Assembly: GCF_988242995.1 (NCBI RefSeq) | Contig: NZ_OZ547043.1 | Strand: one strand, 5' to 3' | Length of the DNA stretch: 64,000 nucleotides | Shown: in pieces, positions 16,309 through 59,456 of the stretch | How the letters are laid out: the number at the start of each line of letters is the position of its first letter | Numbering within the stretch: position 1 is the stretch's first letter | Notes under the pieces: generated by a model | Told to the model about the DNA's origin: nothing | Databases searched by the model: none | The model's input: only the letters and a program-made list of their open reading frames with translations | Translations under genes and position numbers: made by a program

Positions 16309-16414
16309 TTTTCATTCATCAGAGAAAATGATGTTTCCGCGTCTTGATCTAGGCTATAGTCCGGTCATTGTTATCTTTTAAATGTTGTCGTAATTTCAGG
16401 AAATTAACGGAATC

Positions 16415-17971: not shown

Positions 17972-18046
17972 GGTGTGCTTACGTCCCTTATTATTCATAG
18001 TGAAAGCATGCCGGATTGCGGCTAATGATGAGTAAAAGGAAATCCG

Positions 18047-19867
18047 TTGCAGATGATTGTGCGCATACTGCTGCTGTTTATCGCTCTGTTCACCTTCGGT
18101 GCGCAGGCGCAGGCTATCAAGGAAAGCTATGCCTTTGCCGTGCTGGGCGAACCCCGGTACGCGTTTAATTTCAACCATTTTGATTATGTGAACCCCGCGG
18201 CGCCAAAAGGTGGGCAGATAACGTTGTCAGCCCTCGGCACCTTCGATAATTTCAACCGCTATGCACTGCGCGGCAACCCGGGCGCACGCACCGAGCAGCT
18301 GTACGACACGCTATTTACGACTTCCGATGACGAACCAGGCAGTTATTACCCGCTGATTGCTGAAAGCGCACGCTATGCTGACGATTATTCCTGGGTGGAG
18401 GTCGCTATTAATCCGCGCGCCCGTTTTCATGATGGTTCTCCCATTACTGCCCGCGATGTAGAGTTTACTTTTCAAAAATTTATGACCGAAGGCGTGCCGC
18501 AATTTCGTCTGGTCTACAAAGGCACCACCGTCAAAGCCATTGCGCCGTTAACCGTGCGCATTGAGTTAGCTAAACCCGGCAAAGAAGATATGCTGAGTCT
18601 GTTTTCGCTGCCGGTATTTCCAGAAAAGTACTGGAAGAATCACAAACTTAGCGACCCGCTCGCCACGCCTCCGCTTGCCAGTGGTCCGTACCGAATTACG
18701 TCCTGGAAAATGGGGCAAAATATTGTCTATTCCCGCGTGAAAGATTACTGGGCAGCAAACTTACCGGTAAACCGTGGACGCTGGAATTTCGACACCATTC
18801 GCTACGATTATTACCTCGATGATAATGTCGCCTTTGAAGCGTTTAAAGCCGGTGCCTTTGATTTGCGTATGGAAAACGACGCCAAAAACTGGGCCACGCG
18901 CTATACCGGTAAAAATTTCGATAAAAAATACATCATCAAAGATGAGCAAAAGAACGAATCAGCCCAGGATACGCGCTGGCTGGCGTTTAATATCCAACGT
19001 CCGGTATTCAGCGATCGCCGGGTGCGGGAAGCAATCACTCTCGCCTTTGACTTTGAATGGATGAACAAAGCGTTGTTTTACAATGCCTGGAGTCGCACGA
19101 ACAGTTATTTTCAGAATACCGAATACGCGGCCAGAAATTACCCCGACGCCGCGGAGCTGGTGCTTCTGGCACCAATGAAAAAAGATCTACCGCCAGAAGT
19201 CTTCACGCAAATCTACCAGCCGCCGGTATCCAAAGGCGATGGCTACGATCGTGACAACCTGTTAAAAGCCGACAAACTTCTCAACGAAGCGGGCTGGGTG
19301 CTGAAGGGTCAGCAACGCGTAAATGCCACAACGGGTCAGCCGCTCAGCTTTGAGTTATTGCTACCTTCGAGCAGCAATAGTCAGTGGGTATTGCCGTTCC
19401 AGCACAGCCTGCAACGGCTGGGTATCAACATGGACATTCGCAAAGTGGATAACTCGCAAATCACCAACCGCATGCGCAGTCGCGACTATGACATGATGCC
19501 GCGCCTATGGCGGGCGATGCCGTGGCCCAGTTCCGATTTACAGATTTCCTGGTCATCGGAATATATCAATTCCACTTATAATGCCCCCGGCGTGCAAAGT
19601 CCGGTTATCGACTCGCTGATCAACCAAATTATTGCCGCGCAGGGAAATAAAGAAAAATTACTGCCGTTGGGGCGAGCACTGGATCGCGTATTAACGTGGA
19701 ATTATTACATGCTGCCAATGTGGTACATGGCGGAAGACCGTCTCGCCTGGTGGGATAAATTCTCCCAACCCGCTGTACGCCCTGTTTACAGCCTGGGTAT
19801 CGATACCTGGTGGTATGACGTTAATAAAGCGGCCAAACTGCCGTCAGCCAGACAACAGGGAGAGTAG
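18047..19867 (+). CDS. yejA: ABC transporter periplasmic peptide-binding protein YejA
   Basis: 606-aa ORF with signal peptide; yejABEF synteny. Confidence 0.85.
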
Positions 19868-20962
19868 ATGGGCGCTTATCTGATTCGCCGTCTGTTGCTG
19901 GTGATCCCAACGTTATGGGCGATTATCACTATCAACTTTTTCATCGTGCAAATTGCGCCTGGCGGTCCGGTCGACCAGGCCATCGCCGCCATTGAGTTTG
20001 GTAATGCCGGAGTATTACCCGGCGCAGGCGGTGAAGGTGTTCGCGCCAGCCATGCGCAAACGGGCGTCGGCAATATCAGCGACAGTAATTACCGTGGCGG
20101 ACGCGGATTAGATCCAGAAGTGATCGCCGAGATCACTCATCGCTACGGTTTCGATAAGCCGATCCACGAACGTTACTTCAAAATGCTCTGGGACTACATC
20201 CGCTTTGATTTTGGCGATAGCCTGTTTCGCAGCGCCTCGGTGCTGACGCTGATTAAAGACAGTCTGCCGGTTTCCATCACCCTCGGATTGTGGAGCACGC
20301 TGATTATCTATCTGGTGTCGATTCCGTTAGGCATTCGCAAAGCTGTTTATAATGGGAGCCGCTTTGACGTCTGGAGTAGCGCATTTATCATCATCGGCTA
20401 CGCCATTCCGGCCTTTTTGTTTGCCATCCTGCTGATTGTCTTCTTCGCGGGCGGCAGCTATTTCGACCTGTTCCCTCTACGCGGCCTGGTTTCCGCTAAC
20501 TTTGATTCGCTGCCGTGGTATCAGAAAATCACCGATTATCTGTGGCATATCACGCTGCCGGTGCTGGCGACAGTGATTGGCGGCTTTGCGGCGCTGACCA
20601 TGCTGACAAAAAACTCATTCCTTGATGAAGTGCGCAAGCAATACGTGGTGACCGCCCGTGCGAAAGGGGTAAGTGAAAAAAATATTCTCTGGAAACATGT
20701 GTTCCGCAACGCCATGCTGCTGGTGATTGCCGGTTTTCCGGCGACGTTTATCAGCATGTTTTTTACCGGCTCGCTGCTGATTGAAGTAATGTTTTCGCTC
20801 AATGGTCTTGGCTTACTGGGCTACGAAGCGACCGTCTCGCGCGATTATCCTGTAATGTTTGGTACTTTGTATATTTTCACCCTGATTGGCCTGCTGCTGA
20901 ATATTGTCAGTGATATCAGCTATACGCTGGTCGATCCGCGTATAGATTTTGAGGGACGTTAA
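19868..20962 (+). CDS. yejB: ABC transporter permease YejB
   Basis: 364-aa ORF; synteny. Confidence 0.85.
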
Positions 20963-41023: not shown

Positions 41024-43615
41024 TCAGAACGACCAGACCACACCCGCCTGAGTATTCCACGGTGATTCTACCCCTGCGCCATTGCCATAACTGACTGACA
41101 AATGACCGCTTAACGTCGGGGTAAACGATGACCTTATCCCAGCCTGATAAACGCCACGGGTTCCAGCCACATCATTATTAAATTTGCCATCGTCATTAAC
41201 TTTCACCTGGTTAGAATCGGCGTATTCCTGACGCACGGCGGCTTTCAGCCAGGGTTCCAGCGTCGTACCGTTTTGCAGGTCCATGTGATAGCTTACCGCC
41301 GTTCCCGCTTCAGCGCGTAATATCCGGGTATTTCCCACATCCGCGCGCATGCCGTTTGATAACGTGTAGTCCTGACCATCTGTGGTAAAGCCGGTAAAGG
41401 CCAGATAGGGTCTAACACTCCACAATCCGTCAACCCAACGGAACCCGCTCTCAACATGAGCACCCGCGCCGTTACTATTGTAATCGCCAAACGCTGTTGC
41501 CCCATTACTCATCTTGCCATGGATGGTGTTGGCAAAACGGTCAACTTTCACCACCCCATCAACATAGGCACCGTTCTGATGCTCCCAACCGGCATAAGCC
41601 CCCAGGGTGTAGCTATCGACATTGCCTTTGCCGCCGCGATCAAAACCAATATCAGAATGAGAGTAACCAAAGAACAAGCCGCGAATTGTACTGCTTTCTT
41701 CACGGGAGAAACGGCTATCGATACCGAGCGTCAGCCCCGTCAATGTTTGCTCAAAGCCAGCTCCCGCATCAGTGGTCACGTTGTTGCGGGTGTTAATTGC
41801 CGAACTCCACATCGCCGTATCGTAATTAACGCCTTTTACGCTACCAAGACGCTCACGCACGGTGTCCAGTTCTGCATCAAATACCAGCGGTTGTGCTGCC
41901 GCCATATTCAGCATATCAGTGGTTGAAGGGGTAATTTGCGCGCGATTCTCTGCGAGGCTCCAGCTATGGTTGCCATTATCCAGCAAGGTATATTCATACG
42001 TACCGATATCAACAACGCCTCCGGCATTGCCCAACGTAAATGCAGCATCACCGCCGCCCGTTGTTACCAGTGTAAGGCTATCACCTGCTGCCGGGCTGGC
42101 ACCGGTGTCCGTAACGAATATTTTGAAATCACCTGTTGCCTGACCGGTGACGTTGAGCTGATCGCTCTGATGATTAGCCATATCGGTACGCATATAAAAA
42201 TTGCCGTTTCCCGATAGGGTATTGGTGGTCAACGTAGTGAAATTTTCCGCACTTGCCGTCACAGATGAACGAGTCACTGGCTCAGCCATCATAATCACAT
42301 TTGCGCCAGACATCGCAAGGTTGGCTAAGTTGAGGCGAGTGTTTTGGTTCGTCGTAGTGATATCGGCAATGATGGTCCATGCGCTATTTTCGAGCGAAAC
42401 ATCCGCTTTGCTGGTATCCACGGCTCCATGCGTTCTAAAAGAAGCGCCCTCAGAAACCACTACCTTACCCACCAACATAGCGGGTGCATAATTTATTTGC
42501 GGCTTCATGACCTCAAGAATGCCATCATTCCCTCTGACTGAAACGTTAACCATCGTGCCAGCCCAGACATTAGCGCGGCCATTGTTGATAACCATATTTT
42601 CAGAGATGGCTTTAGAGGAATACGTTATACTTCCATTCTGATCTGATCGACCGAGATCATATACCGCATTTGCCTGCACTCTCGTACCAGTATCCTTTCC
42701 CAGCGATTGCATAGTGGCATGCTCATCAAGGATAGTGTCAATGGCCTGCGTGTCCTCCATAACAATAAGCCCGGAACCATCATCCAGCTCATAATTTTTT
42801 GACACGCCATCTTTTATACTAAATTGGCCTTTACTGTTTGTACCACTCACTTCCAGCGCATTCGTTGAGACAATTAATTTTCCGCCTGCTTTTTTATCAA
42901 CGCCAGTTGCAGTCCCGCCATCCATAACCTCCAGTAAGCCGCCACTATCCACAGTGGTATTATAAGCGAAGTCATTTTCTTCAACTCGCAAACTTCCGCC
43001 GTTTTCCAACAGCATATTATTAGCAATACCATCCTTGATATCGAACTGACCGAGACGGTTTGTTCCGAATACCTCCATGGCCCGGGTGGTTGTTTTAATC
43101 GCACCGCCTGCTTTCTGATCTACCGCAAATGCTAATCCCCCCTCTTTAACCTCCAGTAATCCTCCCTTTTCGATAGCGGCAAAGACGGTAATCCCATCTT
43201 TTTCAATAATTAAGCGCCCGCCTTTAATGGTAGTATCATTCGCTGCGCCATAAACCTGTAGCACACCATTATTGAGGGTAGTCTGGTTTGCCGCGCCACC
43301 CATTTGAACAATTTGATAACCATCATTTAATACTGAGTATTCTGCGGTGCCATTCATTTCAATGTACTGATACCCGCCGTTAATTTCAGTATTACTACTT
43401 ATACCAAATTCTTTAATATGCTGTTCTCCGCCAGGATTGATTTTCGTATTATTGGCGGTCCCATAAACCAGCTGGATATCTTTTTCCAGGACAACACCAT
43501 CAACTGTCTCACCATACTCAACTGTTGATGCCAATGCTATGGGTGAATATAACGCTGTAGCCACCAGAACAGATATTGCGGAACGACAAAGAGAAACAGA
43601 ACCAGATTGATGCAT
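41024..43615 (-). CDS. yejO: Autotransporter adhesin YejO, apparently intact
   Basis: 863-aa ORF; N-terminal signal-like segment; repetitive passenger; C-terminus ...AGVVWSF typical of autotransporter beta-barrel. Confidence 0.8.
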   Translation of the reverse strand: MHQSGSVSLCRSAISVLVATALYSPIALASTVEYGETVDGVVLEKDIQLVYGTANNTKINPGGEQHIKEFGISSNTEINGGYQYIEMNGTAEYSVLNDGYQIVQMGGAANQTTLNNGVLQVYGAANDTTIKGGRLIIEKDGITVFAAIEKGGLLEVKEGGLAFAVDQKAGGAIKTTTRAMEVFGTNRLGQFDIKDGIANNMLLENGGSLRVEENDFAYNTTVDSGGLLEVMDGGTATGVDKKAGGKLIVSTNALEVSGTNSKGQFSIKDGVSKNYELDDGSGLIVMEDTQAIDTILDEHATMQSLGKDTGTRVQANAVYDLGRSDQNGSITYSSKAISENMVINNGRANVWAGTMVNVSVRGNDGILEVMKPQINYAPAMLVGKVVVSEGASFRTHGAVDTSKADVSLENSAWTIIADITTTNQNTRLNLANLAMSGANVIMMAEPVTRSSVTASAENFTTLTTNTLSGNGNFYMRTDMANHQSDQLNVTGQATGDFKIFVTDTGASPAAGDSLTLVTTGGGDAAFTLGNAGGVVDIGTYEYTLLDNGNHSWSLAENRAQITPSTTDMLNMAAAQPLVFDAELDTVRERLGSVKGVNYDTAMWSSAINTRNNVTTDAGAGFEQTLTGLTLGIDSRFSREESSTIRGLFFGYSHSDIGFDRGGKGNVDSYTLGAYAGWEHQNGAYVDGVVKVDRFANTIHGKMSNGATAFGDYNSNGAGAHVESGFRWVDGLWSVRPYLAFTGFTTDGQDYTLSNGMRADVGNTRILRAEAGTAVSYHMDLQNGTTLEPWLKAAVRQEYADSNQVKVNDDGKFNNDVAGTRGVYQAGIRSSFTPTLSGHLSVSYGNGAGVESPWNTQAGVVWSF

Positions 43616-43934
43616 TGAGCTTTCATCCTATGAAATTAATTGCTGTTAAAAGCATTGGGTAAAGAAAATACCCATAGCTCCATACCCGGAGTCAGTTTTT
43701 AAAAACTGTTTAAAGAAATGCACAAGTATTGTGATTGATTTTTTAGTTGTTTTTCTTGATGAGAAGCTGATGCAAAATTCCGTCTTTATAATGAAAATGA
43801 TGCCAAAGCGAACGACAAGGTTGTAGTTTTCACTACATGTCCATACATAAAATGGGGTAACATTCACGTGCCTGGTAGCGTTACCAACGCTACGCTCAAA
43901 CATAATGATTCTAATAAAACCTCAGGAGACTACT

Positions 43935-44582
43935 ATGCCTGAAGCAACGCCTTTTCAGGTGATGATTGTGGATGATCATCCACTTATGCGACGCGGTGTT
44001 CGTCAGTTACTGGAGCTTGATCCTGGCTTTGAAGTGGTCGCCGAAGCGGGCGACGGCGCGAGCGCGATCGATCTGGCGAATAGACTGGATATCGACGTGA
44101 TCTTGCTGGATCTCAATATGAAAGGTATGAGTGGCCTGGATACCCTCAATGCCTTGCGCAGGGATGGCGTTACCGCGCAAATTATTATCCTGACTGTATC
44201 AGATGCCTCCAGCGATGTCTTTGCGCTGATAGACGCAGGCGCAGACGGTTATCTGTTGAAAGATAGCGACCCGGAAGTGTTGCTGGAAGCGATTCGTGCC
44301 GGAGCGAAAGGCAGCAAAGTCTTTAGCGAACGCGTCAATCAGTACTTACGTGAACGTGAAATGTTTGGCGCGGAAGAAGATCCCTTCAGCGTGCTGACGG
44401 AGCGCGAGCTGGATGTTCTGCACGAGCTGGCACAGGGGCTGTCAAATAAACAGATTGCCTCGGTGTTGAATATTTCCGAGCAGACAGTAAAAGTACACAT
44501 TCGCAATCTGCTGCGTAAACTCAATGTCCGCTCACGCGTGGCGGCCACCATTCTGTTCCTGCAACAACGCGGGGCACAATAA
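43935..44582 (+). CDS. narP: Nitrate/nitrite response regulator NarP
   Basis: Internal Met MPEATPFQVMIVDDHPLMRRG gives the recalled 215-aa protein; receiver plus LuxR-type HTH. Confidence 0.9.
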   Translation: MPEATPFQVMIVDDHPLMRRGVRQLLELDPGFEVVAEAGDGASAIDLANRLDIDVILLDLNMKGMSGLDTLNALRRDGVTAQIIILTVSDASSDVFALIDAGADGYLLKDSDPEVLLEAIRAGAKGSKVFSERVNQYLREREMFGAEEDPFSVLTERELDVLHELAQGLSNKQIASVLNISEQTVKVHIRNLLRKLNVRSRVAATILFLQQRGAQ

Positions 44583-44616
44583 AAATAGCCCGATGGCATC
44601 ACCATCGGGCCTCTTT

Positions 44617-45669
44617 TTATTTACTCTCCTGCGGCGACAAATGTTGCATCGCCTGCGCGATACTACGTTCAATCACTGCACGGCGAGTATCGTTGGCAGG
44701 TAAGAGTTTCAACATCATCTCCCACGCGGCAACCGCTTCGCCAAATCGCTGCTGCTCAAAGGCATTAAACGCATACATGCTTAACACACGGATATTGCTA
44801 TGGTCCGTTCTCACCAACTGGCGTAGCAGTTCACCACCGAGGCGGTTGTCGTTGGGATCAGATGAACGTGTCAACGCTTCAGCGTATCCGAGCGCCGCAT
44901 CACTGTTCTTCGGATCGAGGCGATATGCAGTAGCGTATGCATCGGTGGCAATACTGGCGTTACCCAGCGCCATGCCAACGCGGCCCAACATAATCCAGCC
45001 TTCTATATCTCCCGGATTTTTTTGCAGTTGAGTACGCATCCCCAGCGCCAGGCGCGACATCTCTTCTTCGTTGAGCGGATCGGCTTTCGGATCCAGCGCC
45101 CTGTCCAGTAACGCCGGAGCCTGTGCCGTGGCCTGCTGCCAGATTTTCACCTGCTGATAATTGCCCGTCTGGTAGTAGCTGACGCCAGCCACAATTAACG
45201 CCACCACAATACCCGGCAGATAAACAATATATCCGGCACGCTTACCTTCCGGCACGCTTTGTTCAGGAAACGCGTCCGGCACCACGCGTACCCGACGCCG
45301 CGAGCGGGCGTATATGACCCAACCGCCAATGCCAATAGCCACTACCGGAAGCACCCACAGCAGCATGGTCAGCGGCGTTAACGGCGGATCGTAAGTGACG
45401 AAGTTGCCGTAACGCGCCACCATATAATCGACAATCTCTTTTTTACTTTTACCTTCCTGCATCAGTTCATACACTTTCTGGCGCAGGTCGGTGGCAATCA
45501 TCGAGTTGGAATCGGCAATGCTGTTGTTCTGGCATTTCGGGCAGCGTAGTTCTTCAGTGAGTTGCCGGAACTGCTGCTCCTGCGCTTCATCCTTAAACTG
45601 CAACACGTCGATGGTCGCCAGCGCTGAGCCGGAGATCATCAGCATCAGCACGCCCAATAAAAACCTCAT
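44617..45669 (-). CDS. ccmH: Cytochrome c-type biogenesis protein CcmH
   Basis: 350-aa ORF with LRCPKCQN motif and TPR-like C-terminus; synteny. Confidence 0.9.
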   Translation of the reverse strand: MRFLLGVLMLMISGSALATIDVLQFKDEAQEQQFRQLTEELRCPKCQNNSIADSNSMIATDLRQKVYELMQEGKSKKEIVDYMVARYGNFVTYDPPLTPLTMLLWVLPVVAIGIGGWVIYARSRRRVRVVPDAFPEQSVPEGKRAGYIVYLPGIVVALIVAGVSYYQTGNYQQVKIWQQATAQAPALLDRALDPKADPLNEEEMSRLALGMRTQLQKNPGDIEGWIMLGRVGMALGNASIATDAYATAYRLDPKNSDAALGYAEALTRSSDPNDNRLGGELLRQLVRTDHSNIRVLSMYAFNAFEQQRFGEAVAAWEMMLKLLPANDTRRAVIERSIAQAMQHLSPQESK

Positions 45670-46223
45670 TGTGCGGCCTCCTTACTGTATTTCTCCCACA
45701 GCGGCTTGATCTCTTCTTCCCAGACGCGAGGATTGAGATCGCCCGCATGGCGATAGCGAATGATGCCGTTGCCGTCGATGAGGAACGTTTCTGGCGCGCC
45801 ATAGACACCGAGATCCAGTCCTAACATGCCGTCGCCATCAAACAGGCTTAGTGCGTAAGGATTGCCCAGCTCTTTCAGCCAGCTGATTGCCTTCTGGCGA
45901 TCGTCTTTATAGTTCATGCCGACCACGCGGATGCCCTGCGCAGAAAGCTGATTCAGATATTGATGTTCCGCACGGCAGGTCGGACACCAGGTCGCCCAGA
46001 CGTTAAGCAGCACTGGTTTGCCCTGAGTCAGCACATCCGCCTGATAAAACTGCCCCGGATTGTCCAGTGATTCGAGGCGAAACTTCGGCACCGGCTTGCC
46101 AATGAGCGCCGATTCCAGATTGGTCGGATCATCCCCTTCGGCATTACGCGCCAGCTGCCACAGTAGCGCCGCGGCAATCGCCAGGAAGATAATCAACGGA
46201 ATTAACAATACTTTGCGCTTCAT
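45666..46223 (-). CDS. ccmG: Thiol:disulfide interchange protein CcmG (DsbE)
   Basis: 185-aa ORF with WCPTC motif. Confidence 0.9.
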   Translation of the reverse strand: MKRKVLLIPLIIFLAIAAALLWQLARNAEGDDPTNLESALIGKPVPKFRLESLDNPGQFYQADVLTQGKPVLLNVWATWCPTCRAEHQYLNQLSAQGIRVVGMNYKDDRQKAISWLKELGNPYALSLFDGDGMLGLDLGVYGAPETFLIDGNGIIRYRHAGDLNPRVWEEEIKPLWEKYSKEAAQ

Positions 46224-48163
46224 ACAGCCTCCGGCGCAGTTTTTTGCGGACTCACGCGCTTACGATAGCGAGGATCAAACAGACACAGCAGTCCGCCCAA
46301 CGCCATCATCAGCCCGCCCGCCCAAATCCAGCGAACAAACGGTTTGTAGTAAAGACGCACAGCCCACGCGCCGTTTTCCAGCTCTTCACCGAGCGCGGCG
46401 TACAGGTCACGCGTGATGCCACCGTCAATCGCCGCTTCGGTCATCATCGACCCGGCAGTGTTGTAATAACGTTTTTCCGCATACAGCACTGTTTCCGGCT
46501 TGCCATCGCGCGTTACGCCGATAGTCGCCACACCGCCACGCCAGTTCGGACCAGTCACCTCTTTGACATCACGGAAAGTGAAGCGATATTCATGAATATC
46601 GACGCTATCGCCGGACTTCATGCGCACATCACGCTCAACGCTATAGTTCTGACTAAAAGCAATGCCAACAATTGTCACTGCCAGCCCCAGGTGAGCCGCC
46701 ACCATTCCCCAATAACTGAAGGTGGTTTTCGTACCGCGTGAAATACGCAGCGCAGCTTCCGCAATTGCCAGCACCGCAATCCAGCAGGCCATTGCCAGGC
46801 CGAGCACCGTCATCGCCACAACTTTGCTTTCGAACAGCCACGGCAACAGCAGAGACAGCACCAGCGTAGAGATAAAGGCGAAAATCAATAAATTGCGGAT
46901 CTTACGTGGGCGATCGCGCCCCCAGCGCACCAGAGGACCGACACCAAGCAGTAGCGCAAACGGCACCATCAGCCAGGTAAACATGGTGTTGAAGAACGGT
47001 TCGCCAATCGAAATACTGCCCAGTCCCAGTTGCTTGTGCACCAGCGGCAGCAACGTCCCCAGCAACACCACCAGCATCGCGGCGACCAGCAAAACGTTGT
47101 TCGCTAACAGCAAAGATTCCCGCGACCACAGTGCATTGTTTACGCGTGAGCGAACTTTGTGTCCACGCGCGGCAAAAAGCAGCAGCGAACCGCCAATCAC
47201 CAGCACCATAAAGGCGAGGATAAACATACCGCGTGCCGGATCAGACGCAAACGCGTGTACCGATACCAGTACGCCGGAACGCACCAGGAAAGTCCCCAGC
47301 AGACACAACGAGAAGGCACTGATTGCCAGCAGTAATGTCCACGCTTTGAAGCTGGCGCGTTGTTCAGTGACCGCCAGTGAGTGCATCAGCGCAGTCCCCA
47401 CCAGCCACGGCATAAACGAGGCGTTTTCTACCGGATCCCAGAACCACCAGCCACCCCAGCCGAGTTCGTAATAGGCCCATGCGGAACCAAGCACAATGCC
47501 GAGCGTCAGGAAAATCCACGCTGCCAGCGTCCACGGACGAGTAAAACGCGCATAAGTGCTGTCCAGACGCCCACTCAACAAAGAAGCAATGGCGAAAGCA
47601 AACGCCACCGAGAAACCGACGTACCCCATATAGAGCAGAGGCGGATGGAAGATCAGCCCCGGATCCTGCAACAGCGGGTTAAGATCGCGCCCTTCAATCG
47701 GGAAATTCGGCAGCGTGCGTGAGAATGGGTTAGAGGTAAATAGAATGAACAGCAAAAAGCCGACACTGACCATCCCCATTATCGCCAGTACGCGGGCCAC
47801 AATATCCAGCGGAATACGCTGACTAAAAATCGCCACCGCAAAGGTCCAGCCGCTCATCAGCAGCACCCACAGCAGCAGTGAGCCTTCATGTGCGCCCCAG
47901 GTAGCCGCCACGCGATACCACACCGGAAGCTGGGTATTGGAGTTGCTGGCAACATAGGTGACGGTAAAGTCGTTGACCACGAAGGCATTGACCAGTACCA
48001 GAAATGCGCCAGCCACAGACATAAACAGCAGCCAGGCAAACAAGCGGGAAGACGCCATCATGCGCGCATCTCCGCGCGCTACGCCCCATAGCGGATACAC
48101 GGACAGCAGCAGCGCAATTCCTAGCGCCAGGCACAGCAGCCCGTTACCAATTTCCGGCATCAT
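46220..48163 (-). CDS. ccmF: Cytochrome c heme lyase subunit CcmF
   Basis: 647-aa polytopic ORF; synteny. Confidence 0.9.
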
Positions 48164-48639
48164 GATGCTGGGTCCTTATAAACACTCGCCGGGCGACGGT
48201 GGTTAGCTTCCATCGCTTTCTCAACTTCTGGCGGCGTGTAGTTTTCATCATGTTTCGCCAGCACTTCTTTCGCGAGGATAAGATTGCCTTTTTCCAGCTC
48301 GCCCTGCACCACAACGCCCTGCCCTTCACGGAACAGATCCGGCAAAATGCCTTCGTAAGAAACATCCACTGAGCCTTCAGCATCGTAAATGGTGAAGGTC
48401 ACTTTCAGCGAATTGGGATCGCGCTGCACGCTACCCGGCATCACCATCCCGCCAACGCGCAGACGCTGACCGACTTCCGGCATCTGCTGAGTTTCACGCT
48501 TGCCGTAGAGAATTTCCCCCGGCGTATAAAAGAGATCGATATTCGAGCGCAGCGCATACAGCACCAGACCGATGGTCAGCGCCAAACCTGCCAACACAGC
48601 ACAGGCAATCCACAAGCGGTTTTTACGGCGAATATTCAT
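48160..48639 (-). CDS. ccmE: Heme chaperone CcmE
   Basis: 159-aa ORF; synteny. Confidence 0.9.
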
Positions 48640-48845
48640 GCAGCCTCCTGCTGTTGCGCAGCACGTAAACGCGCCTCACGCGCCCGCTGTTGCGCCACAC
48701 CACGCAGAATTGCGCGATGCTGCATCACCGAGTGCACGACCAAAACCACCAGCGGAATAACGGTCATCACCACCGCCAGCCAGACAAAAAAGGCGTAACC
48801 GCCCATTGCGAAAAATTCATTCCAGGAAGCAAATGCAGGGGTCAT
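48636..48845 (-). CDS. ccmD: Heme exporter protein CcmD
   Basis: 69-aa ORF; synteny. Confidence 0.85.
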
Positions 48846-49579
48846 TTACGGCCTCTTTTCAGTATCAGTTCACTCACCCACGGACGGCGTTTTTCCATCA
48901 GCAAAATTAAATTACGCATCCGCATCAGCGTCAGCGTGGCAGACAGCAGCAAGAAGCCAAAAATCGACCAGCGCAGCGGCGAACGCATCGCCGGATCGAT
49001 ACTTTGCTGCATTCGCGTTGATCCCTGATGCAGGGTGTTCCACCACTCCACGGAGTAATGAATAATCGGCAGATTCACCACGCCAATCAGCACCAGGATA
49101 CCTGCCGCACGGCCCGCCAGACGGCGGTCGTCGAAGGCGTGCCACAGGGCAATTACACCAACATACAGAAACAGCAGCACCAGTTCAGAAGTCAGGCGTG
49201 CGTCCCATACCCACCAAGTGCCCCACATCGGTTTTCCCCATGCAGAGCCGGTAACCAGGGCAATAAAGGTAAACACGGCACCAATGGGGGCCATCGCCGC
49301 CACCGCCAGGTTGGCCATTTTCATCTGCCAGACAAGGCCAATAAACGCCGCCACCGCCATTGATGCATAAATGCCCATCGACCAGATCGCCGCAGGCACA
49401 TGCAGGTAGATAATGCGGTAGCTATTTCCCTGCTGATAATCAGCCGGAGCAAAGCCGAATCCCCAGATCCAGCCAACGGTAAGCACGACCACACTGGCAA
49501 TTGCCAGCCACGGTATAAACCAGCCACAGATTTGATACAGCCGTGGTGGGATCGCCAGTTGATGCAGTGTTTTCCACAT
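48842..49579 (-). CDS. ccmC: Heme exporter protein CcmC
   Basis: Internal Met MWKTLHQLAIPPRLYQ gives the recalled 245-aa protein. Confidence 0.85.
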   Translation of the reverse strand: MWKTLHQLAIPPRLYQICGWFIPWLAIASVVVLTVGWIWGFGFAPADYQQGNSYRIIYLHVPAAIWSMGIYASMAVAAFIGLVWQMKMANLAVAAMAPIGAVFTFIALVTGSAWGKPMWGTWWVWDARLTSELVLLFLYVGVIALWHAFDDRRLAGRAAGILVLIGVVNLPIIHYSVEWWNTLHQGSTRMQQSIDPAMRSPLRWSIFGFLLLSATLTLMRMRNLILLMEKRRPWVSELILKRGRK

Positions 49580-49620
49580 AGTTTCGATACCAGACTCGAA
49601 CAAAAATCAGTAATCCAGCG

Positions 49621-50283
49621 TTATTGAATGCTGATTCGTAACGCTGCCGCCGTCGCAAAAGGACTTAATGTCGCGGTGCCTGCCAGCAACGCGCCTAAAA
49701 TTGCCAGATACCCGTCAACGGGCAAATGCATGGAAGCCGCGTCCATCGCGGCGGTGGCAAAGATGAGTAATGGGATAGTCAGCGGTAACACCAGTATGCT
49801 GAGCAGCACACCACCGCGCTTAAGTCCCACTGTCAGCGCCACGCCCGGTGCACCGAGAAAGCCAAGCGTAGGCGTTCCCAGCAGCAGCGTCAGCGCCATC
49901 ACTTGCCAGCCATAAACATCCATTCCCAGTAGCATTGCTACCAGTGGCGAAAGGATGAGTAACGGCAGACCGGTTACCATCCAGTGCGCCATCACCTTCG
50001 CCAGCACAACGGCGGGCAAGGGTAACGGCAACAACATCAATTGTTCAAGACTGCCGTCCTGCAAATCGTCACGGAACAGTCGTTCCAGCGCCAGCAAGGA
50101 TGAAAGCAGCGCAGCAACCCAGATAATGCCCGGTGCAATACGCGCCAGCAGTTGCGGCTCCGGACCGATACTGAGCGGAAAAAGGGTAATGACAATCAGG
50201 AAGAACCACAGCGGGTTGGCGATTTCGGCACTATGGCGAAACGCTACGCGCAGCTCAAGACGGAAAATGCGCCAGAACATCAT
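49621..50283 (-). CDS. ccmB: Heme exporter permease CcmB
   Basis: 220-aa ORF; synteny. Confidence 0.9.
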
Positions 50284-50903
50284 GCGGCCCTCGTTTGCGT
50301 CAGTGAAATGCGGCGAATTTTACTTTCAGCAACGTTGAGCGGCTGGTGGGTAGTCAGAATCACAATCCCCCCCTGCTCCGTATGCTGCGCCATACGCTGG
50401 GTCAGACGATCGACGCCGTTAACGTCAATCGCGGTAAAAGGCTCGTCGAGGATCCATAACGTGGCACGGGTCAGCCACAGACGCGCTAAAGCGACGCGGC
50501 GTTGTTGCCCGGCAGAAAGTTGATTTACCGGAATATCTTCGAATCCGGCAAGCCCGGCCTGCGCCAGGGCTTCCAGACATTGTGCGGTATCGCCATCGCG
50601 ATGATAAAAGTGCAGATTTTCTAACGCCGTCAGCCGGGTTTTGATCCCCGGCTGATGGCCTATCCATAACAGGTTTTGATGGTAGCTGTCGCGTACCTGA
50701 TGCAAGGGCTGCCCTTGCCAGAGAACGTCTCCCGCATCAGGGCGAGACAACCCCGTCAGCAAACGGAGAAGCGTTGTCTTCCCCGCGCCGTTGCTACCGG
50801 TGATTTGTACCCACTCTCCTGCGTTCAGCGTAAATGACAAGCCACTAAATAAGGTTCGTTCATCCCGCTCGCAAAGTAACTCTCTGGCTTCAAGCATACC
50901 CAC
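50280..50903 (-). CDS. ccmA: Heme exporter ATP-binding protein CcmA
   Basis: 207-aa ORF with Walker [10 protein letters not shown]. Confidence 0.9.
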
Positions 50904-50915
50904 GCAATAACCCTG

Positions 50916-51518
50916 TTAAAAACCTGGCTCGACTTCGCGCATATCGGGCAGCTTGTGCGCTATCCCTTTATGGCAATCAATACAGGTTTGCCCATCTTTC
51001 ACCGCCTGGTCATGCATCTTCGCGGCAACCGATTTCTGGGCGGTTGTATCCATATACTCGAAGTTGTGACAGTTACGGCACTCCTGCGAGTTATTGTCCT
51101 TCATGCGCCGCCACTCATTCTGTGCCATCGTCAGGCGATGAGCTTCAAATTTCTGCGGCGTGTCAATAACGCCAAAAATTTTACCATACAGCTCTTTACT
51201 TGCTTTGAGCTTGCGTATCATCTTCGGCACAAACTCGTGCGGAACGTGACAATCCGGACAGGTCGCACGGACGCCGCTACGGTTGTTGTAGTGCACGGAA
51301 TCCATGTATTCCTGATACACCGTGTTACGCATTTCGTGGCAGCTAATGCAGAACTCTTCGGTATTGGCTTTTTCCATCCCGGTGTTAAAGCCGCCCCAGA
51401 AGACGATGCCGCCAACAAAGCCGATCAACAGCAGCGTCCCCAGCGCCAGACGGCTGGGGGTACGCCACCATTTCCACAGGCGCTTAATCAGACCAGGCTT
51501 ACGGTCAGAATTTCCCAT
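50916..51518 (-). CDS. napC: Tetraheme cytochrome c NapC
   Basis: 200-aa ORF with four CxxCH motifs. Confidence 0.9.
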   Translation of the reverse strand: MGNSDRKPGLIKRLWKWWRTPSRLALGTLLLIGFVGGIVFWGGFNTGMEKANTEEFCISCHEMRNTVYQEYMDSVHYNNRSGVRATCPDCHVPHEFVPKMIRKLKASKELYGKIFGVIDTPQKFEAHRLTMAQNEWRRMKDNNSQECRNCHNFEYMDTTAQKSVAAKMHDQAVKDGQTCIDCHKGIAHKLPDMREVEPGF

Positions 51519-51527
51519 AATAACCTC

Positions 51528-51977
51528 TTATTTCCCGTAACCTTTTGACGGGGTAAAGGTATTCCCCACGATTGGCGCGGTATCAGCCTGCGGCACGTGA
51601 CATTGCAGACAGAAGTAACGACGTGGAGCCACTTCCGCGCCCACTTTGCCGTCGCTGTCCATAAAGTGAGTAGGACTGATGCGCGGCGCGCCAGTGGTGC
51701 GATAGCTTTCGACACCGTGGCACTGCAAGCAGCGGTTGGTATTGGTCGTTACCTGATAACCTTCAACGCTATGCGGGATCATTGGCGGCTGATTCACATA
51801 GTTCAGCGGCATCCGATCCTGCTCTTTTGGCATCCGAATGGCCCCTTCCTGCGTCCCGGATACTTCCGGCGACTGGCTAAAATCGACGCCATTAGCCGCC
51901 CAAACCGCGCCGCTCACCACCAGGGCCAGCATCGCCGTCCATTGACACAGCGCTTTCTTCAGGTCATGGCTTTTCAT
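51528..51977 (-). CDS. napB: Diheme cytochrome c NapB
   Basis: Internal Met [13 protein letters not shown] gives the recalled 149-aa protein; two CxxCH motifs. Confidence 0.85.
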   Translation of the reverse strand: MKSHDLKKALCQWTAMLALVVSGAVWAANGVDFSQSPEVSGTQEGAIRMPKEQDRMPLNYVNQPPMIPHSVEGYQVTTNTNRCLQCHGVESYRTTGAPRISPTHFMDSDGKVGAEVAPRRYFCLQCHVPQADTAPIVGNTFTPSKGYGK

Positions 51978-52837
51978 GATTTCGCTCCCGAACTCCATCG
52001 TGTAGTTATTGTAAATACATCCTCAGAACAGACATCCACGCAGCGACCGCACGTCATGCAATCGCGGCTGGTGACCTGCACCGGGCTTTGTTCATCCAGC
52101 ACCGGGGCACGTAGCACATGCGGTTCCGGGCAAACATGAAAACAATCCATACAGCGGTTACATTTCTGCCGATCGGTGGCCGCAACGGTAATGACACCTT
52201 TGCTACCCAGCACGCCATACAGCGCGCCAACCGGACAAATGTGCCCGCACCAGCCGTGTTCAACGACCAGTAGATCAAATAAAAACAGCGCGAGAATAAG
52301 CAGCGCGCCGCTGCCGAATCCCATTACCAGACTGCGCCCCATCAGGGAAACGGGGTTGATCCATTCCCAGATGAGCGTGCCGGTTAAGGCCGATCCCAGC
52401 AGAATGACCACCAACAGCACGTAGCGAATGTGGCGAGGGATCGTCGCAGACTGATTGAGATCAAAGCGCCTGCGTAACCAGTTTGCTAAGTCGGTAATCG
52501 GGTTCAGCGGGCAGACCCAGCTGCAAAATAATCGCTTTCCTGCCAGGGCGTAGAGCACGGTGATAATCACCGCACCGGTCAACGCCACCATGGCAGGCAG
52601 ATGACCGCTGGCAAGACTTTGCAGCGTCATCAGCGGATCGGTCAGCGGAACGGTGTCGAATAACAGGCTACTGCTGTAGTTGCCGTGCAAAATCCACACA
52701 CCAAACCACGGACCGCTCAAAAACATCCCCAGCACGAAGAACTGACAAAGGCGACGTAACACCAGCCAACGGTGACTGCGCCACCAGCCTTTTTTCTCCA
52801 GCGCCTCGCGCCCGGCGTCACGTTTACGATTTGCCAT
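51974..52837 (-). CDS. napH: Ferredoxin-type membrane protein NapH
   Basis: 287-aa ORF; Cys clusters; synteny. Confidence 0.9.
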
Positions 52838-53519
52838 TGTTCCCCTCCAGCCAGCCGAAGCGGTAATGGTGACCTAACTCCCCTTTCGCCAGTGACAGCG
52901 GTAACACCTTGATTGCCGGTTGTTCCAGCACGCACACTTTTTCGCACTTACCGCAGCCGGTACAGGCGTCGCTGTGAACCGTCGGCAGAAAGCGGGCGTG
53001 CTTACCGGTACGCGTGTTGCGCTCCAGCTCCAGGGTGATGGCCTCATCAATTTTCGGGCATTCGCGATAACAAACATCGCAGCGCAGCCCCTGAAAGTTG
53101 AGACAGTTTTCCTGGTCCACCAGCACCGCCAGCCCCATCCGCGCGTCGTCGATCGATTCGATCTCACGATCCAGCGCTCCGCTCGGGCACACTTTGGCGC
53201 ACGGAATGTCCTCACACATTTCGCAAGGAATATCCCGTGCGACAAAATATGGCGTGCCCGCCGACAGACCAGAGGCCAGCGTCGCCAGTTTTAAGGTGTC
53301 GTAAGGGCACGCCTGAACACACTGACCGCAACGCACACAGGCACTGGCAAAGGCGTTCTCGTTTATGGCTCCGGGCGGGCGCAACCGCACGCCAGATGCG
53401 CGTGCGGTTTGCTGTTGTAACCCCAGCGCCACACCCACGGCAGCCAGCCCGCCAGCTGTGCGAACGACATCGCGCAGAAAGCGGCGGCGACCATTTTGAG
53501 GTTTCGCTGACCGGGACAT
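52824..53519 (-). CDS. napG: Ferredoxin-type protein NapG
   Basis: 231-aa ORF with Tat-like signal and 4Fe-4S CxxCxxCxxxCP motifs. Confidence 0.9.
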
Positions 53520-53525
53520 AATGGC

Positions 53526-56012
53526 TTACACCTTCTCCAGTTTGACCGCGCACTTCTTGAAGTCCGTCTCTTTCGAGAGCGGATCGGTCGCATCCAGCGT
53601 CAGTTTGTTAACCAGCTGTGCGGCGTCGAAGAACGGCATGTACACCAGGCCCTGCGGCGGACGGTTACGACCGCGCGTTTCGACAATCGAGATCACTTCG
53701 CCACGGCGAGAAACCACTTTCACTTTGTCGCCACGGCGCAGATCGCGCGCTTTCGCATCCAACGGGTGAATAAACAGGACCGCTTCCGGGAAGGCACGGT
53801 GCAGTTCCGGTACACGGCGAGTCATACTGCCGGTATGCCAGTGCTCCAGGACGCGTCCGGTAGAGAGCCACAGGTCGTACTCTTCATCCGGTGCCTCCGC
53901 CGCCGGTTCGAACGGCAGCGCGAAGATCACCGCTTTGCCATCCGGTTTACCGTAGAACTTGTAGCCTTCGCCCGCTTTCACGTACGGGTCGTTACCTTCG
54001 CTGTAACGCCACTGCGTTTCTTTACCGTTCACCACCGGCCAGCGCAGACCGCGCGCTTTGTGGTAGTCATCGAACGGTGCCAGATCGTGACCGTGACCGC
54101 GACCAAACCATGCGTACTCTTCGAATAGCCCTTTTTGCAGATAGAAGCCCAGCTCGCGGGATTCATCGTTCAGCTGATCTTCCGCCAGTTCGGATACCGG
54201 GAATTTGCTCACTTCGGGGGTGGCATACAGCACTTCGTACAGCGTTTTGCCACGCAGTTCCGGTTTCTTCGCCAGCAGATCTTCCGGCCATACTTCTTCA
54301 GTTTTGAAGCGGCGGGAGAACTGGACTAACTGCCAGAGATCCGATCTCGCTTCGCCCGGTGCCTGTACCTGCTGACGCCAGAACTGAGTACGGCGTTCGG
54401 CGTTACCGTAAGCGCCCTCTTTCTCTACCCACATTGCGGTCGGCAGGATCAAGTCGGCGGCCAGCGCACTGACTGTCGGATACGGATCGGAGACGATGAT
54501 GAAGTTGCGCGGATCGCGCCAGCCCGGCATACGCTCTTCATTGATGTTCGGCCCGGCCTGCATGTTGTTGGTACACATGGTCCAGTAAACATTCAGCTTG
54601 CCGTCTTTCAGTGCACGGTCTTGTGCCACCGCGTGCAGACCGATTTTCGCCGGAATGGTGCCGCTCGGGATATTCCACTTCTTCTCGCAGATATCACGGT
54701 GTTTTTCGTTGGTCACCACCATATCCGCAGGCAGACGGTGAGCAAAAGTGCCCACTTCACGCGCAGTACCACACGCGGAAGGCTGCCCGGTCAGGGAGAA
54801 CGGACCGCAACCCGGCTGGGAAATTTTGCCGGTCAGCAGGTGCAGGTTGTAGACCAGGTTGTTGGCCCACACGCCGCGCGTGTGCTGGTTGAAGCCCATC
54901 GTCCAGTAGGAGATGACTTTCTTGTTCGGATCGGCGTACAGCTGCGCCAGTTGTTCTAACTGGTCTTTCGGCACGCCGGTCATTTCAGCGGTTTTTTCCA
55001 GCGTATACTCAGCAACGAAGGCTTTGTAATCTTCAAAGCTCATCGGTTCGGAGGCGTCAGAACCTGGATTCTTCGCTGCTTTTTCCAGCGGATGGGTCGG
55101 ACGTAAACCGTAGCCGATGTCCGTCGCCCCTTTGCGCAGGTTAACGTGTTTACTAAAGAAGTCCTGATTTATCGCATTGTTTTGAATGATATAGTTGGCG
55201 ATGTAGTTCAGGATCACCAGGTCAGATTGCGGCGTAAAGATGATGCCGTTATCCGCCAGCTCGAAGCTACGATGCTGGTAGGTAGAAAGCACCGCCACGG
55301 TGACGTTCTGGTTGGAGAGACGACGGTTAGTGATGCGCGACCAGAGGATCGGGTGCATCTCCGCCATGTTTGCGCCCCACAGCACAAACGCGTCAGCCTG
55401 CTCGATGTCGTCATAGCAGCCCATCGGCTCATCCATACCAAAGGTACGCATAAAGCCAACTACCGCCGACGCCATACAGTGACGCGCGTTCGGGTCGATG
55501 TTGTTCGAACGGAATCCCGCTTTAAACAGCTTGGACGCGGCATAACCTTCCCAGATAGTCCACTGACCAGAACCGAACATACCGATCGATTCTGGCCCTT
55601 TTTCTTTCAGGGCGGTTTTGAATTTCTCTTCCATCACATCGAAGGCCTGATCCCAGGTGATTGGGGTAAACTCGCCTTCTTTGTCATATTTACCGTTTTT
55701 CATACGCAGAAGCGGCTGCGTCAAACGGTCTTTACCGTACATGATTTTGGGCAGGAAATAGCCCTTAATGCAGTTCAGACCACGGTTAACCGGTGCGTCC
55801 GGGTCGCCCTGACAGGCCACCACACGCCCCTGCTGCGTTCCGACCAGAACGCCGCAACCAGTACCGCAGAAACGGCACGGCGCTTTATCCCATTTAATGG
55901 CTTCCTGCTGACCAACAACGGCGCGGGCAACGCCCGGCACGCTGAGACCGGCAGCCGCCGCAGCGGCCGCAACGGCGTTAGCTTTCATAAAGCTACGACG
56001 ACTGAGTTTCAT
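53526..56012 (-). CDS. napA: Periplasmic nitrate reductase catalytic subunit NapA
   Basis: 828-aa ORF with twin-arginine signal SRRSFMK. Confidence 0.9.
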
Positions 56013-56272
56013 GGTGTTTCCTCACCTTGCTCTTCCTGCTGGTGATAAACCAGCGACACCGCCAGCACGCCCTCTACGTTGCGTACTGACTCAATGATTT
56101 GGATCAGCGTTTCGCTGTCTTCTGCTTCCACCACCACAATCAACTGACCGCTCGGCGCGTCGCTGACAGCAACTTCACAGCCGGGAAAGGCGTTCAGTTG
56201 GGTGCTGATGTCTGAAATTCGTTCGCTTTTGGCCTGCACGACCAGGCTGCAAACTTGCCAGTTAGTGTGCAT
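56009..56272 (-). CDS. napD: NapA chaperone NapD
   Basis: 87-aa ORF; synteny. Confidence 0.9.
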
Positions 56273-56756
56273 GGAGATACTCCGCAGTTATGGCTGATAC
56301 CGGACAGCTGGCTGCACATGCTCCACATCCGTTGCAAAGTTGGCTATTAAGTTGCGGCTGGTAGATCCCGGAGAGCGTCGGGCGAAAGATAATTGCCATT
56401 GGCTCACAGCTATCCTGACAGCGGCGGCATTCAACTGACTGATACGCCAGGCACGCGTCCCCAATGGTGAACTGCAAATCCCAGGCCCTGGTGTGGCGCG
56501 GAGAAAATAGCGATTCGGGGCAAGCCTGCGCGCAGGCGTAACAGAAGCTGCACTCGTTATTTTTGAAGTTAACGCTCGGATAGCCGCCCGCGCCGCGTTG
56601 CAGAATGTTGTTTTCACAAGCATTAATACAGGCGTCGCAGCGGGTGCAATGGGTCAGAAAATGAGATTCATCACCGGACCAGGGCGGACGGATACCGTTA
56701 CTGGCTTTGCGCCAGCGACCAGTGAGTATGCCCCGACGGGATGCATCAATCTTCAC
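56262..56756 (-). CDS. napF: Ferredoxin-type protein NapF
   Basis: 164-aa ORF with multiple 4Fe-4S Cys clusters. Confidence 0.9.
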   Translation of the reverse strand: MKIDASRRGILTGRWRKASNGIRPPWSGDESHFLTHCTRCDACINACENNILQRGAGGYPSVNFKNNECSFCYACAQACPESLFSPRHTRAWDLQFTIGDACLAYQSVECRRCQDSCEPMAIIFRPTLSGIYQPQLNSQLCNGCGACAASCPVSAITAEYLHAH

Positions 56757-56869
56757 ATTGACCTTCCATCATTAACGCGCTCTGAAAATTGAGAGCGACC
56801 AAATAAACCGCATAATTAATAAGCCATTTTTATAGCCGCTAAGATATTAAAGGATGTGTCAAAGATGCA

Positions 56870-56885
56870 TACCCCGATCGGGGTA
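56870..56885. promoter_or_regulatory. NarP/NarL 7-2-7 heptamer pair in the napF promoter
   Basis: Perfect palindrome taccccgatcggggta; TACYYMT heptamers in 7-2-7 arrangement upstream of napF. Confidence 0.75.
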
Positions 56886-56890
56886 AAACC

Positions 56891-56904
56891 TGTAGCAGGA
56901 TCAA
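56891..56904. promoter_or_regulatory. Candidate FNR site in the napF promoter
   Basis: TTGATcctgCTACA on the napF strand, centred 20 bp upstream of the NarP site centre. Confidence 0.5.
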
Positions 56905-57161
56905 AAGAGTGGCGGGAAGCGTGGCAAAAACGGGCTTTTGCTCACATTTCAAATGGTTATAAACATATTTATATAGCGATTAATTCACCAGAAATATTTC
57001 TGTTGGTTTGCTCTCTCATCAGAATTTAACACTAAAAGAGCAGGTAAAATTATCTGAATGTTCTTTAAGTTATTCATAAAGCAAATTAATAAATCTGATG
57101 AATATGTTAACCTTCAGCGACATCATCGGTGAAAACCTATAAATGAAGAAGGAAAGCAAAA

Positions 57162-57650
57162 ATGAAGACCATTCTACCTGCAGTATTGTTTGCCGCTTTC
57201 GCCACCACCTCCGCCTGGGCGGCAGAGAGCGTCCAGCCACTGGAAAAAATCGCGCCTTATCCGCAAGCTGAAAAAGGCATGAAGCGTCAGGTGATTCAGT
57301 TAACCCCGCAAGAAGATGAATCTACCCTGAAAGTAGAACTGTTAATCGGTCAGACGCTGGAAGTCGATTGCAATTTGCATCGTCTCGGCGGGAAGCTGGA
57401 AAGCAAAACGCTGGAAGGCTGGGGCTATGATTATTATGTCTTTGATAAAGTCAGTTCCCCGGTTTCGACGATGATGGCCTGCCCGGATGGCAAGAAAGAG
57501 AAGAAATTTGTCACAGCGTATTTGGGTGATGCCGGAATGCTGCGTTACAACAGCAAGCTGCCGATCGTGGTGTATACGCCAGACAATGTGGATGTGAAAT
57601 ACCGCATCTGGAAGGCGGAAGAGAAAATTGACAACGCGGTAGTTCGCTAA
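57162..57650 (+). CDS. eco: Ecotin (periplasmic serine protease inhibitor)
   Basis: 162-aa ORF with signal peptide; sequence recognised. Confidence 0.9.
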
Positions 57651-57669
57651 ACTGCCGTGAAGTGCTCCA

Positions 57670-57795
57670 CCCCGTAGGTCAGATAAGGCGGTTACGCCGC
57701 ATCCGATCTAACGCCCAAGCCGGTTGCCTGATAAGACGCTGGCGCGTCTTATCTGCATACGCCACATCCGGCATACCATGCCGGATGTGGCACAT
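57670..57795. repeat. REP/BIME cluster between eco and mqo
   Basis: Palindromes cctgataagacgctggcgcgtcttatc and gccacatccggcat..atgccggatgtggc. Confidence 0.7.
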
Positions 57796-57797
57796 CA

Positions 57798-59456
<1,659 letters not shown>

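Follow-up and report, generated by a model that had tools for sequence, protein, structure and literature searches.

The region described here occupies positions 44617 to 56756, on the minus strand, of a 64,000-nucleotide stretch of DNA (the window; contig NZ_OZ547043.1 of NCBI RefSeq assembly GCF_988242995.1), and carries the genes for periplasmic nitrate reductase (nap) and for cytochrome c maturation (ccm). We are nearly certain (probability about 0.96) that it is aeg-46.5 of Escherichia coli, the transcription unit napFDAGHBC-ccmABCDEFGH, with fifteen intact genes, and no evidence against this identity of the locus was found. The locus is already known: it is the aeg-46.5 operon of K-12 in another E. 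coli lineage, with nothing novel about it.

The stop codon of ccmH ends at position 44617 and the GTG start codon of napF begins at position 56756, exactly the limits given by an earlier reading made from the letters of the window alone (below, the sequence-only reading). A listing of open reading frames (ORFs) for 43500-58000 shows an unbroken minus-strand series from 56756 down to 44617. Transfer of annotation from E. coli 7/2 and K-12 MG1655 gave 15 coding sequences (CDSs), seven nap and eight ccm, in the order napF-D-A-G-H-B-C-ccmA-B-C-D-E-F-G-H, and profile hidden Markov models independently gave the same order. Both agree with the head-to-tail arrangement of napFDAGHBC and ccmABCDEFGH on the minus strand in the sequence-only reading; its “seventeen-gene” operon was a miscount, and no additional gene is annotated or detectable within the unit. 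The unit is flanked by narP (convergent) beside ccmH and by yojO/eco (divergent) beside napF.

All 15 frames are open, with lengths divisible by three and one terminal stop codon each. GTG is the start codon of napF and ccmA and ATG that of the other 13 genes, and no frameshifts, internal stops or insertions were found in any of the 15. The base-for-base alignment with K-12 b2194-b2208 extends over 12,140 bp with zero insertions or deletions and 229 substitutions, most of them synonymous (98.1% identity), and only 10 of 4,028 residues differ. It follows from so few residue changes among 229 substitutions, in an alignment without gaps, that every frame is under purifying selection. The K-12 operon (b2208-b2194) has the same 15 genes in the same order, with the same lengths and all 14 junction distances in common, and the substitutions are the difference between the two, with no structural difference within the unit. 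The sequence-only reading had called the organisation known and had named K-12 as the comparison to make and frameshifts or insertions as what could break the operon; the alignment bears it out on each of these points, and the literature likewise has ccm together with nap in aeg-46.5.

A Megablast search for the 12,140-bp sequence in every complete genome of E. coli gave matches in 5,425 of 5,426, and in 5,417 of them a single place covered at least 80% of the query, always at the napF...ccmH annotations. The identity across these genomes was 95-99% or better, with E. coli 7/2 at the top (99.1%). The divergence from E. coli 7/2 is mosaic, with one difference in the 3.5 kb at 44617-48100 (ccmH, ccmG and most of ccmF) and 114 differences in the remaining 8.6 kb (48100-56756), which suggests that recombination had a breakpoint close to the ccmF/ccmE boundary.

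Gene products and cofactor motifs

Proteins were identified with NCBIfam models at their curated equivalog or subfamily cut-offs, and with Pfam in the case of CcmH. Fourteen proteins scored above the curated NCBIfam cut-offs; in the following each score is given in bits against the cut-off of the model, and all genes lie on the minus strand.

The nap genes encode the periplasmic nitrate reductase, with NapA as the catalytic subunit, NapD as its chaperone, NapB and NapC as dihaem and tetrahaem cytochromes, and NapF, NapG and NapH as ferredoxin-type proteins. The first gene, napF (56262..56756), has a GTG start and encodes a ferredoxin-type protein of 164 amino acids (TIGR00402 equivalog, 248 bits against 102) that is identical to the K-12 protein and contains three CxxCxxCxxxC motifs and one more CxxC. 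It is followed by napD (56009..56272), which encodes the 87-residue chaperone that binds the signal peptide of NapA (NF007840 equivalog, 166 bits against 113), and by napA (53526..56012) for the catalytic molybdoenzyme subunit of 828 residues (TIGR01706 equivalog, 1654 bits against 931). NapA carries a twin-arginine translocation (Tat) motif, SRRSFMK, at residues 4-10 and a CxxCxxxC cluster, CRFCGTGC, at residue 46, the cysteine motif for a 4Fe-4S cluster. The ferredoxin-type subunit NapG (52824..53519, 231 residues; NF007012 equivalog, 416 bits against 269) has a Tat-like RRRF motif and cysteine clusters, and ferredoxin-type cysteine clusters are also present in NapH (51974..52837), the quinol dehydrogenase ferredoxin subunit of 287 residues (NF007013 equivalog, 470 bits against 234). 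The haem-binding CxxCH motif occurs twice in the dihaem cytochrome c subunit NapB (51528..51977, 149 residues; NF008609 equivalog, 328 bits against 230) and four times in the tetrahaem quinol dehydrogenase NapC (50916..51518, 200 residues; NF007906 equivalog, 463 bits against 349).

The ccm genes encode the System I cytochrome c maturation machinery, in which CcmABCD form the haem-handling and release complex, CcmE is the haem chaperone, CcmF and CcmH make up the haem lyase and CcmG is the thioredoxin-like reductant. The ATP-binding cassette (ABC) ATPase gene ccmA (50280..50903) has a GTG start and encodes 207 residues (NF010061 equivalog, 332 bits against 195) with the Walker A sequence GSNGAGKT and the signature LSAGQ; one simple pattern for Walker B gave no match in CcmA. 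The membrane subunit CcmB (49621..50283) has 220 residues (TIGR01190 equivalog, 317 bits against 156). The haem-handling membrane protein CcmC (48842..49579, 245 residues; TIGR01191, 282 bits against 186) and the haem lyase subunit CcmF (46220..48163, 647 residues; TIGR00353, 1014 bits against 569) both contain a WWD motif, WGTWWVWD at residue 119 and WGGWWFWD at residue 236, respectively. Between them lie ccmD (48636..48845), encoding only 69 residues (TIGR03141, 67 bits against 26; Pfam PF04995), and ccmE (48160..48639) for the periplasmic haem chaperone of 159 residues (NF009635 equivalog, 318 bits against 264), with the haem-binding histidine His130 within LAKHDE (residues 127-132). The thiol:disulfide oxidoreductase CcmG, also named DsbE (45666..46223, 185 residues; NF011941 equivalog, 422 bits against 359), has CPTC at residue 80. 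The last gene, ccmH (44617..45669), encodes 350 residues with CPKC at residue 43. In NCBIfam this protein gave only a sub-threshold match to NrfF, and it was identified from its Pfam domains, CcmH in the N-terminal part (170 bits) and TPR_CcmH_CycH in the C-terminal part (204 bits); it is the fusion of CcmH with a CcmI-like tetratricopeptide repeat (TPR) protein that is typical of E. coli. Apart from Walker B in CcmA, the cofactor motifs that we tested for were present throughout.

Other open frames in and around the unit were set aside. A minus-strand ORF at 43646-43903 (85 residues, ATG start) nearly fills the intergenic region between yejO and narP; it has no Pfam match, is unannotated in E. 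coli 7/2 and K-12, and is probably due to chance. Two plus-strand ORFs, one antisense to napA (55146-56045, 299 residues) and one antisense to ccmF (46722-47471, 249 residues), were judged to be ordinary antisense open frames. An Rfam scan of 43000-58500 at gathering thresholds returned zero RNA families.

Gene junctions and their conservation

The distances between neighbouring genes, given in nucleotides (nt) with negative values for overlaps, are -11 (napF/D), -4 (napD/A), +6 (napA/G), -14 (napG/H), -4 (napH/B), +9 (napB/C), +12 (napC/ccmA), -4 (ccmA/B), +41 (ccmB/C), and then -4 at each of ccmC/D, ccmD/E, ccmE/F, ccmF/G and ccmG/H. Ten of the 14 junctions thus overlap, eight of them as ATGA (-4) and one each by 11 and 14 nt, leaving four spacers, of 6, 9, 12 and 41 nt. 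The sequence-only reading, according to which most junctions overlap by 4 to 14 nt, had the range right, and all eight of its examples (ccmH/G, G/F, F/E, E/D, D/C, ccmB/A, napD/A and napF/D) do overlap. The strength of the Shine-Dalgarno sequences was expressed as duplex energy, which is weak at ccmA (-3.3 kcal/mol) and ccmC (-3.0 kcal/mol) and reaches the highest value of the operon at ccmH (-12.1 kcal/mol).

The operon is unusually rich in overlaps when compared with genes at large, and moderately so when compared with tight operons. Among unidirectional E. coli gene pairs 707 of 2,987 (24%) are found at distances from -8 to +6 (PMC10666635), against nine of the 14 junctions in this operon (binomial p = 0.0014). 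Overlaps of any length occur at 10 of 14 junctions versus 4 of 30 co-directional flank pairs in the same window (Fisher p = 2.5e-4), and none of these 30 pairs has a -4 overlap (Fisher p = 1.7e-5). Two of the four spacers, napB/C (+9) and napC/ccmA (+12), belong to an E. coli-specific “+9 to +12” class, which has been ascribed to independent initiation at a Shine-Dalgarno sequence within the spacer (PMC10666635).

For a wider comparison CcmC was used as query against a species-representative genome collection, giving 80 gammaproteobacterial loci, with flanking sequence of up to 10 kb, in which the orthologues of all 15 proteins were placed by tblastn. The nap and ccm genes are fused in only six of the 80 loci, those of E. 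coli, E. albertii, Citrobacter werkmanii, C. youngae, Enterobacter sp. BIGb0383 and Leclercia adecarboxylata, and nap is absent upstream of ccmA in 59 of 59 other loci with more than 7 kb of sequence there. Only a small group within the Enterobacteriaceae has the fusion, in agreement with a published contrast between aeg-46.5 of E. coli and the separate ccm operon of Vibrio natriegens (PMC10937671). Within the fused group the distances, in the order of the genes, are -11, -4, +6 (or +5), -14, -4, +9, +12 to +20, -4, +40 to +103 and then five times -4. When the other five fused loci are compared with the window, 11 of the 14 junctions are identical in four of them, and outliers apart only the napC/ccmA and ccmB/ccmC spacers vary.

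The stand-alone ccmABCDEFGH(I) operons of Vibrio, Aeromonas, Pasteurellaceae, Shewanella, Serratia, Rahnella and others have the same ccm gene order, conserved short overlaps at ccmC/D, D/E, E/F, F/G and G/H, and a spacer at ccmB/C. They differ in that nap is missing upstream, and in many of them ccmH and ccmI are apparently separate genes, to judge from gaps of ~450-530 nt between ccmG and the TPR-domain match. Counted over the loci, a distance of -4 was found in 57 of 78 for ccmD/E, 42 of 68 for ccmE/F, 36 of 66 for ccmG/H and 32 of 66 for ccmF/G, and distances of -4 or -1 in 37 of 79 for ccmC/D and 38 of 79 for ccmA/B. The ccmB/C junction is never at -4 (0 of 79) and exceeds 20 nt in 50 of 79 loci. 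As judged from these distances, the pattern of ccm overlaps with one long spacer between ccmB and ccmC is old and conserved, which argues that the distances are under selection.

The ccmB-ccmC spacer itself (49580-49620 in the window) spans -1 to 216 nt across Gammaproteobacteria, and the sequences are unrelated. Some of the spacers contain palindromes resembling repetitive extragenic palindromic (REP) elements (Enterobacter sp.), the one in Haemophilus haemolyticus contains a terminator-like hairpin, and GTGAGCA about 10 nt 5' of the ccmC start is common to many Enterobacterales other than Escherichia. Two further arrangements were seen among the loci. Citrobacter werkmanii has two ccm loci, the nap-fused one with a CcmC 93% identical to that of the window, and a second, stand-alone one with a CcmC 80% identical and an apparent split of ccmH and ccmI. 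Two loci from Pectobacterium have napA and napB downstream of ccm on the opposite strand (about 16300-20700), a linkage unlike the head-to-tail fusion in Escherichia.

Transcription unit and control region

The best-scoring terminator-like structure on both strands is a hairpin at 44587..44611, with 11 and 9 pairs, 7 G-C pairs and T-runs following it, and it appears to be a bidirectional intrinsic terminator that serves both ccmH, whose stop is at 44617, and the convergent narP, whose stop is at 44582. The other terminator-like sites are weak and number 22 versus 15 +/- 3.6 expected. By this score there seems to be no strong terminator between napF and ccmH and one right after ccmH, which fits a single polycistronic unit, and the ccm genes of E. 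coli have been described as part of the aeg-46.5 operon with nap (PMC10937671, PMC3893208).

The spacer between narP and ccmH is 34 bp long (44583-44616) and holds the one bidirectional hairpin. In K-12, by contrast, it has 210 bp, with REP-like palindromes between two copies of the hairpin (GCCCGATGG...ATCGGGC), and looks like the product of an insertion of a REP or bacterial interspersed mosaic element (BIME) with duplication of the hairpin. A further difference from K-12 lies in yejO, which is a pseudogene split by IS5K in K-12 and is intact in the window (41024-43615, minus strand, 863-residue autotransporter), as in E. coli 7/2; the window therefore does not come from K-12.

At the other end of the unit, the napF control region (56840..56980, minus strand) was analysed by motif search and by alignment with K-12 and the fused species. 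Reading away from napF, it contains a -10-like TAATAT within 56840-56853, a NarP/NarL-like perfect 7-2-7 palindrome, TACCCCGATCGGGGTA, at 56870-56885, an FNR-like site, TTGATCCTGCTACA, at 56891-56904, and, further upstream, a ModE-like site at 56955-56980. The palindrome TACCCCGATCGGGGTA is situated exactly 20 bp downstream of the FNR-like site TTGATCCTGCTACA, centre to centre. Following the work of Stewart and Darwin, we take these motifs to be putative sites for FNR, NarP and ModE; presumably the FNR site at -64.5 and the NarP/NarL site at -44.5, reportedly described by Darwin et al. (1998) and by Stewart et al. (2003 and 2009), are the ones seen here. The core of the region, including all four motifs, is identical to K-12, and the three positions that differ are located further upstream and between the motifs. 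Conservation across Escherichia, Citrobacter, Enterobacter and Leclercia, the genera of the six fused species, extends to the FNR half-site, to the palindrome and to the -10 region, which stand out as phylogenetic footprints.

An annotated CDS for a 54-residue “uncharacterized protein YojO” (56865-57029, plus strand) is contained in full within the napF control region, on the other strand, where it overlaps the palindrome, the FNR-like site and the ModE-like site. This raises the question of whether the conservation of YojO could reflect regulatory DNA instead of protein.

Taken as a unit, transcription would start at an activator-dependent napF promoter, with the putative FNR-like and NarP/NarL-like sites 20 bp apart, and would end at the hairpin shared with narP. 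With ccm linked to nap in this way, haem-attachment capacity would be supplied at just the time at which NapB and NapC, the c-type cytochromes, are produced.

Probable translational coupling and its alternatives

The sequence-only reading had described the overlaps as consistent with translational coupling, and as a statement of consistency this holds, the -4 overlap being the configuration shown to be coupled in other gene pairs native to E. coli, where termination-reinitiation was demonstrated for four of five -4 pairs (PMC6728339). The efficiency of reinitiation is reduced by 40-80% at +14 nt and is almost zero at +38 nt (PMC10666635), and coupling by termination-reinitiation is enriched among subunits of heteromeric complexes (PMC6728339, PMC10666635). 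The coupled pairs hyfHI, astDB, ydbH/ynbE as well as menDH (PMC6728339) resemble the junctions described here in having an ATGA overlap with the Shine-Dalgarno sequence embedded in the upstream coding sequence and in encoding subunits or partners of one pathway, and they differ in that they were studied with reporter fusions and transcript controls, whereas the nap and ccm junctions are known here from sequence.

The stop/start geometry for reinitiation is present at the eight junctions at -4 and at one each at -11, -14 and +6, distances that are kept in other genera. At the overlaps, a ribosome terminating on the upstream gene would most likely reinitiate at the downstream start, and such reinitiation would link the output of subunits of the same complex, above all along the unbroken chain ccmC-D-E-F-G-H. 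From this geometry and its conservation we think that coupling probably operates at most of the -4 junctions, and the candidates for it are napD, napA, napH, napB, ccmB and the chain ccmD-E-F-G-H. The distance class from -8 to +10 has been treated as predictive of reinitiation (PMC10666635), and napG (+6) lies inside it. For ccmC in particular, with its spacer of 41 nt and a Shine-Dalgarno energy of -3.0 kcal/mol, independent initiation is more likely, and ccmA (+12, GTG start, -3.3 kcal/mol) and napC (+9) are probably initiated independently as well.

Several points weigh against coupling. A literature search found no direct test of translational coupling in nap or ccm. Most of the overlapped starts have a usable Shine-Dalgarno sequence of their own inside the upstream gene (-5.8 to -12.1 kcal/mol), so that independent initiation is possible at them; as reinitiation usually needs such a sequence too, its presence fits both modes alike. 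One of the five native -4 pairs tested, bioBF, was initiated de novo (PMC6728339), and against closely spaced flank pairs only, of which 4 of 11 overlap, the excess of overlaps in the operon is not significant (p = 0.09). As to the conservation of the distances, the starts in the 80 loci were set heuristically, as the start codon nearest to the extrapolated N-terminus, which makes individual distances approximate, and outlying values were obtained for napF/napD in Leclercia (-83) and for napH/napB (+132) and ccmC/ccmD (+79) in C. youngae. The Shine-Dalgarno sequences, the bioBF pair and the comparison with closely spaced flank pairs leave some room for an explanation in which the overlaps are by-products of genome compaction and of drift of starts and stops, with each cistron initiated at its own Shine-Dalgarno sequence, recognisable at nearly all overlapped starts, and with ATGA as the most accessible way for two genes to abut; -4 is indeed the commonest junction distance genome-wide in E. 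coli. We regard this as possible and on the doubtful side, since the same -4 overlaps recur across genera and orders where protein identity is down to 55-60%, the overlaps cluster at junctions between subunits of one complex, ccmB/ccmC is kept as a spacer, which suggests selection on the distances, and four of the five tested E. coli pairs are coupled.

That some of the overlaps are artefacts of annotation, with true starts further downstream and genes that merely abut or are spaced, is very improbable. Alternative starts do exist: ccmB and ccmF open with ATGATG, which would give -1 in place of -4, ccmH has four further start candidates within 10 codons, TTG codons are found at +8 in ccmE and +5 in ccmG, and napB has another ATG 7 codons upstream, with the 149-residue form being the one annotated in K-12. 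In most genes, however, the annotated start is the first or sole in-frame candidate, and the choice of starts therefore does not account for the overlaps. The annotated starts of napD, napH and ccmD are the sole plausible ones (for napD, which starts 11 nt inside napF, the next in-frame start is 11 codons downstream, and napH has no other in-frame candidate near that position), the candidate at +8 in napA would delete the Tat motif, and even with their second ATG as the start ccmB and ccmF would overlap the upstream stop by 1 nt. Furthermore NapD, NapB, NapC, CcmE and CcmG match their profiles at full length from residue 1, and other genera yield the same start positions. It is likewise unlikely that nap and ccm are two adjacent operons that are transcribed independently, with ccm expressed mainly from a promoter of its own inside napC or napB. 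Such an arrangement would agree with the 59 of 59 non-fused loci that lack nap 5' of ccmA, from which, as from Vibrio natriegens (PMC10937671), we conclude that ccm was ancestrally stand-alone, and with the GTG start and weak Shine-Dalgarno sequence of ccmA after its 12-nt spacer. Against it, the gap between napC and ccmA is just 12-20 nt in six of the six fused species and contains no terminator-like hairpin, and in published work the unit counts as a single, anaerobically activated operon. A sigma-70 consensus scan found zero promoter-like sites on the minus strand within or upstream of the operon, which also speaks against this arrangement, although such an absence is expected for an activator-dependent promoter and the scan is uninformative on an internal ccm promoter. 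On the other side, a weak internal ccm promoter was reportedly described by Tanapongpipat et al. in 1998.

If coupling operates at the overlaps as we favour, the ccm genes might further be divided into two translational modules conserved in Gammaproteobacteria, ccmA-ccmB on the one side and, on the other, a reinitiation chain ccmC-D-E-F-G-H whose level would be set by a single weak and independent initiation at ccmC. We put this forward as speculation that is rather less likely than not to hold. If true, the ccmB-ccmC spacer would be a control point for the stoichiometry of the CcmAB release ATPase versus the CcmCDE/FGH haem-handling proteins. In any case it is established biology that the locus ties the production of periplasmic nitrate reductase to the haem-attachment machinery required by its cytochrome subunits.

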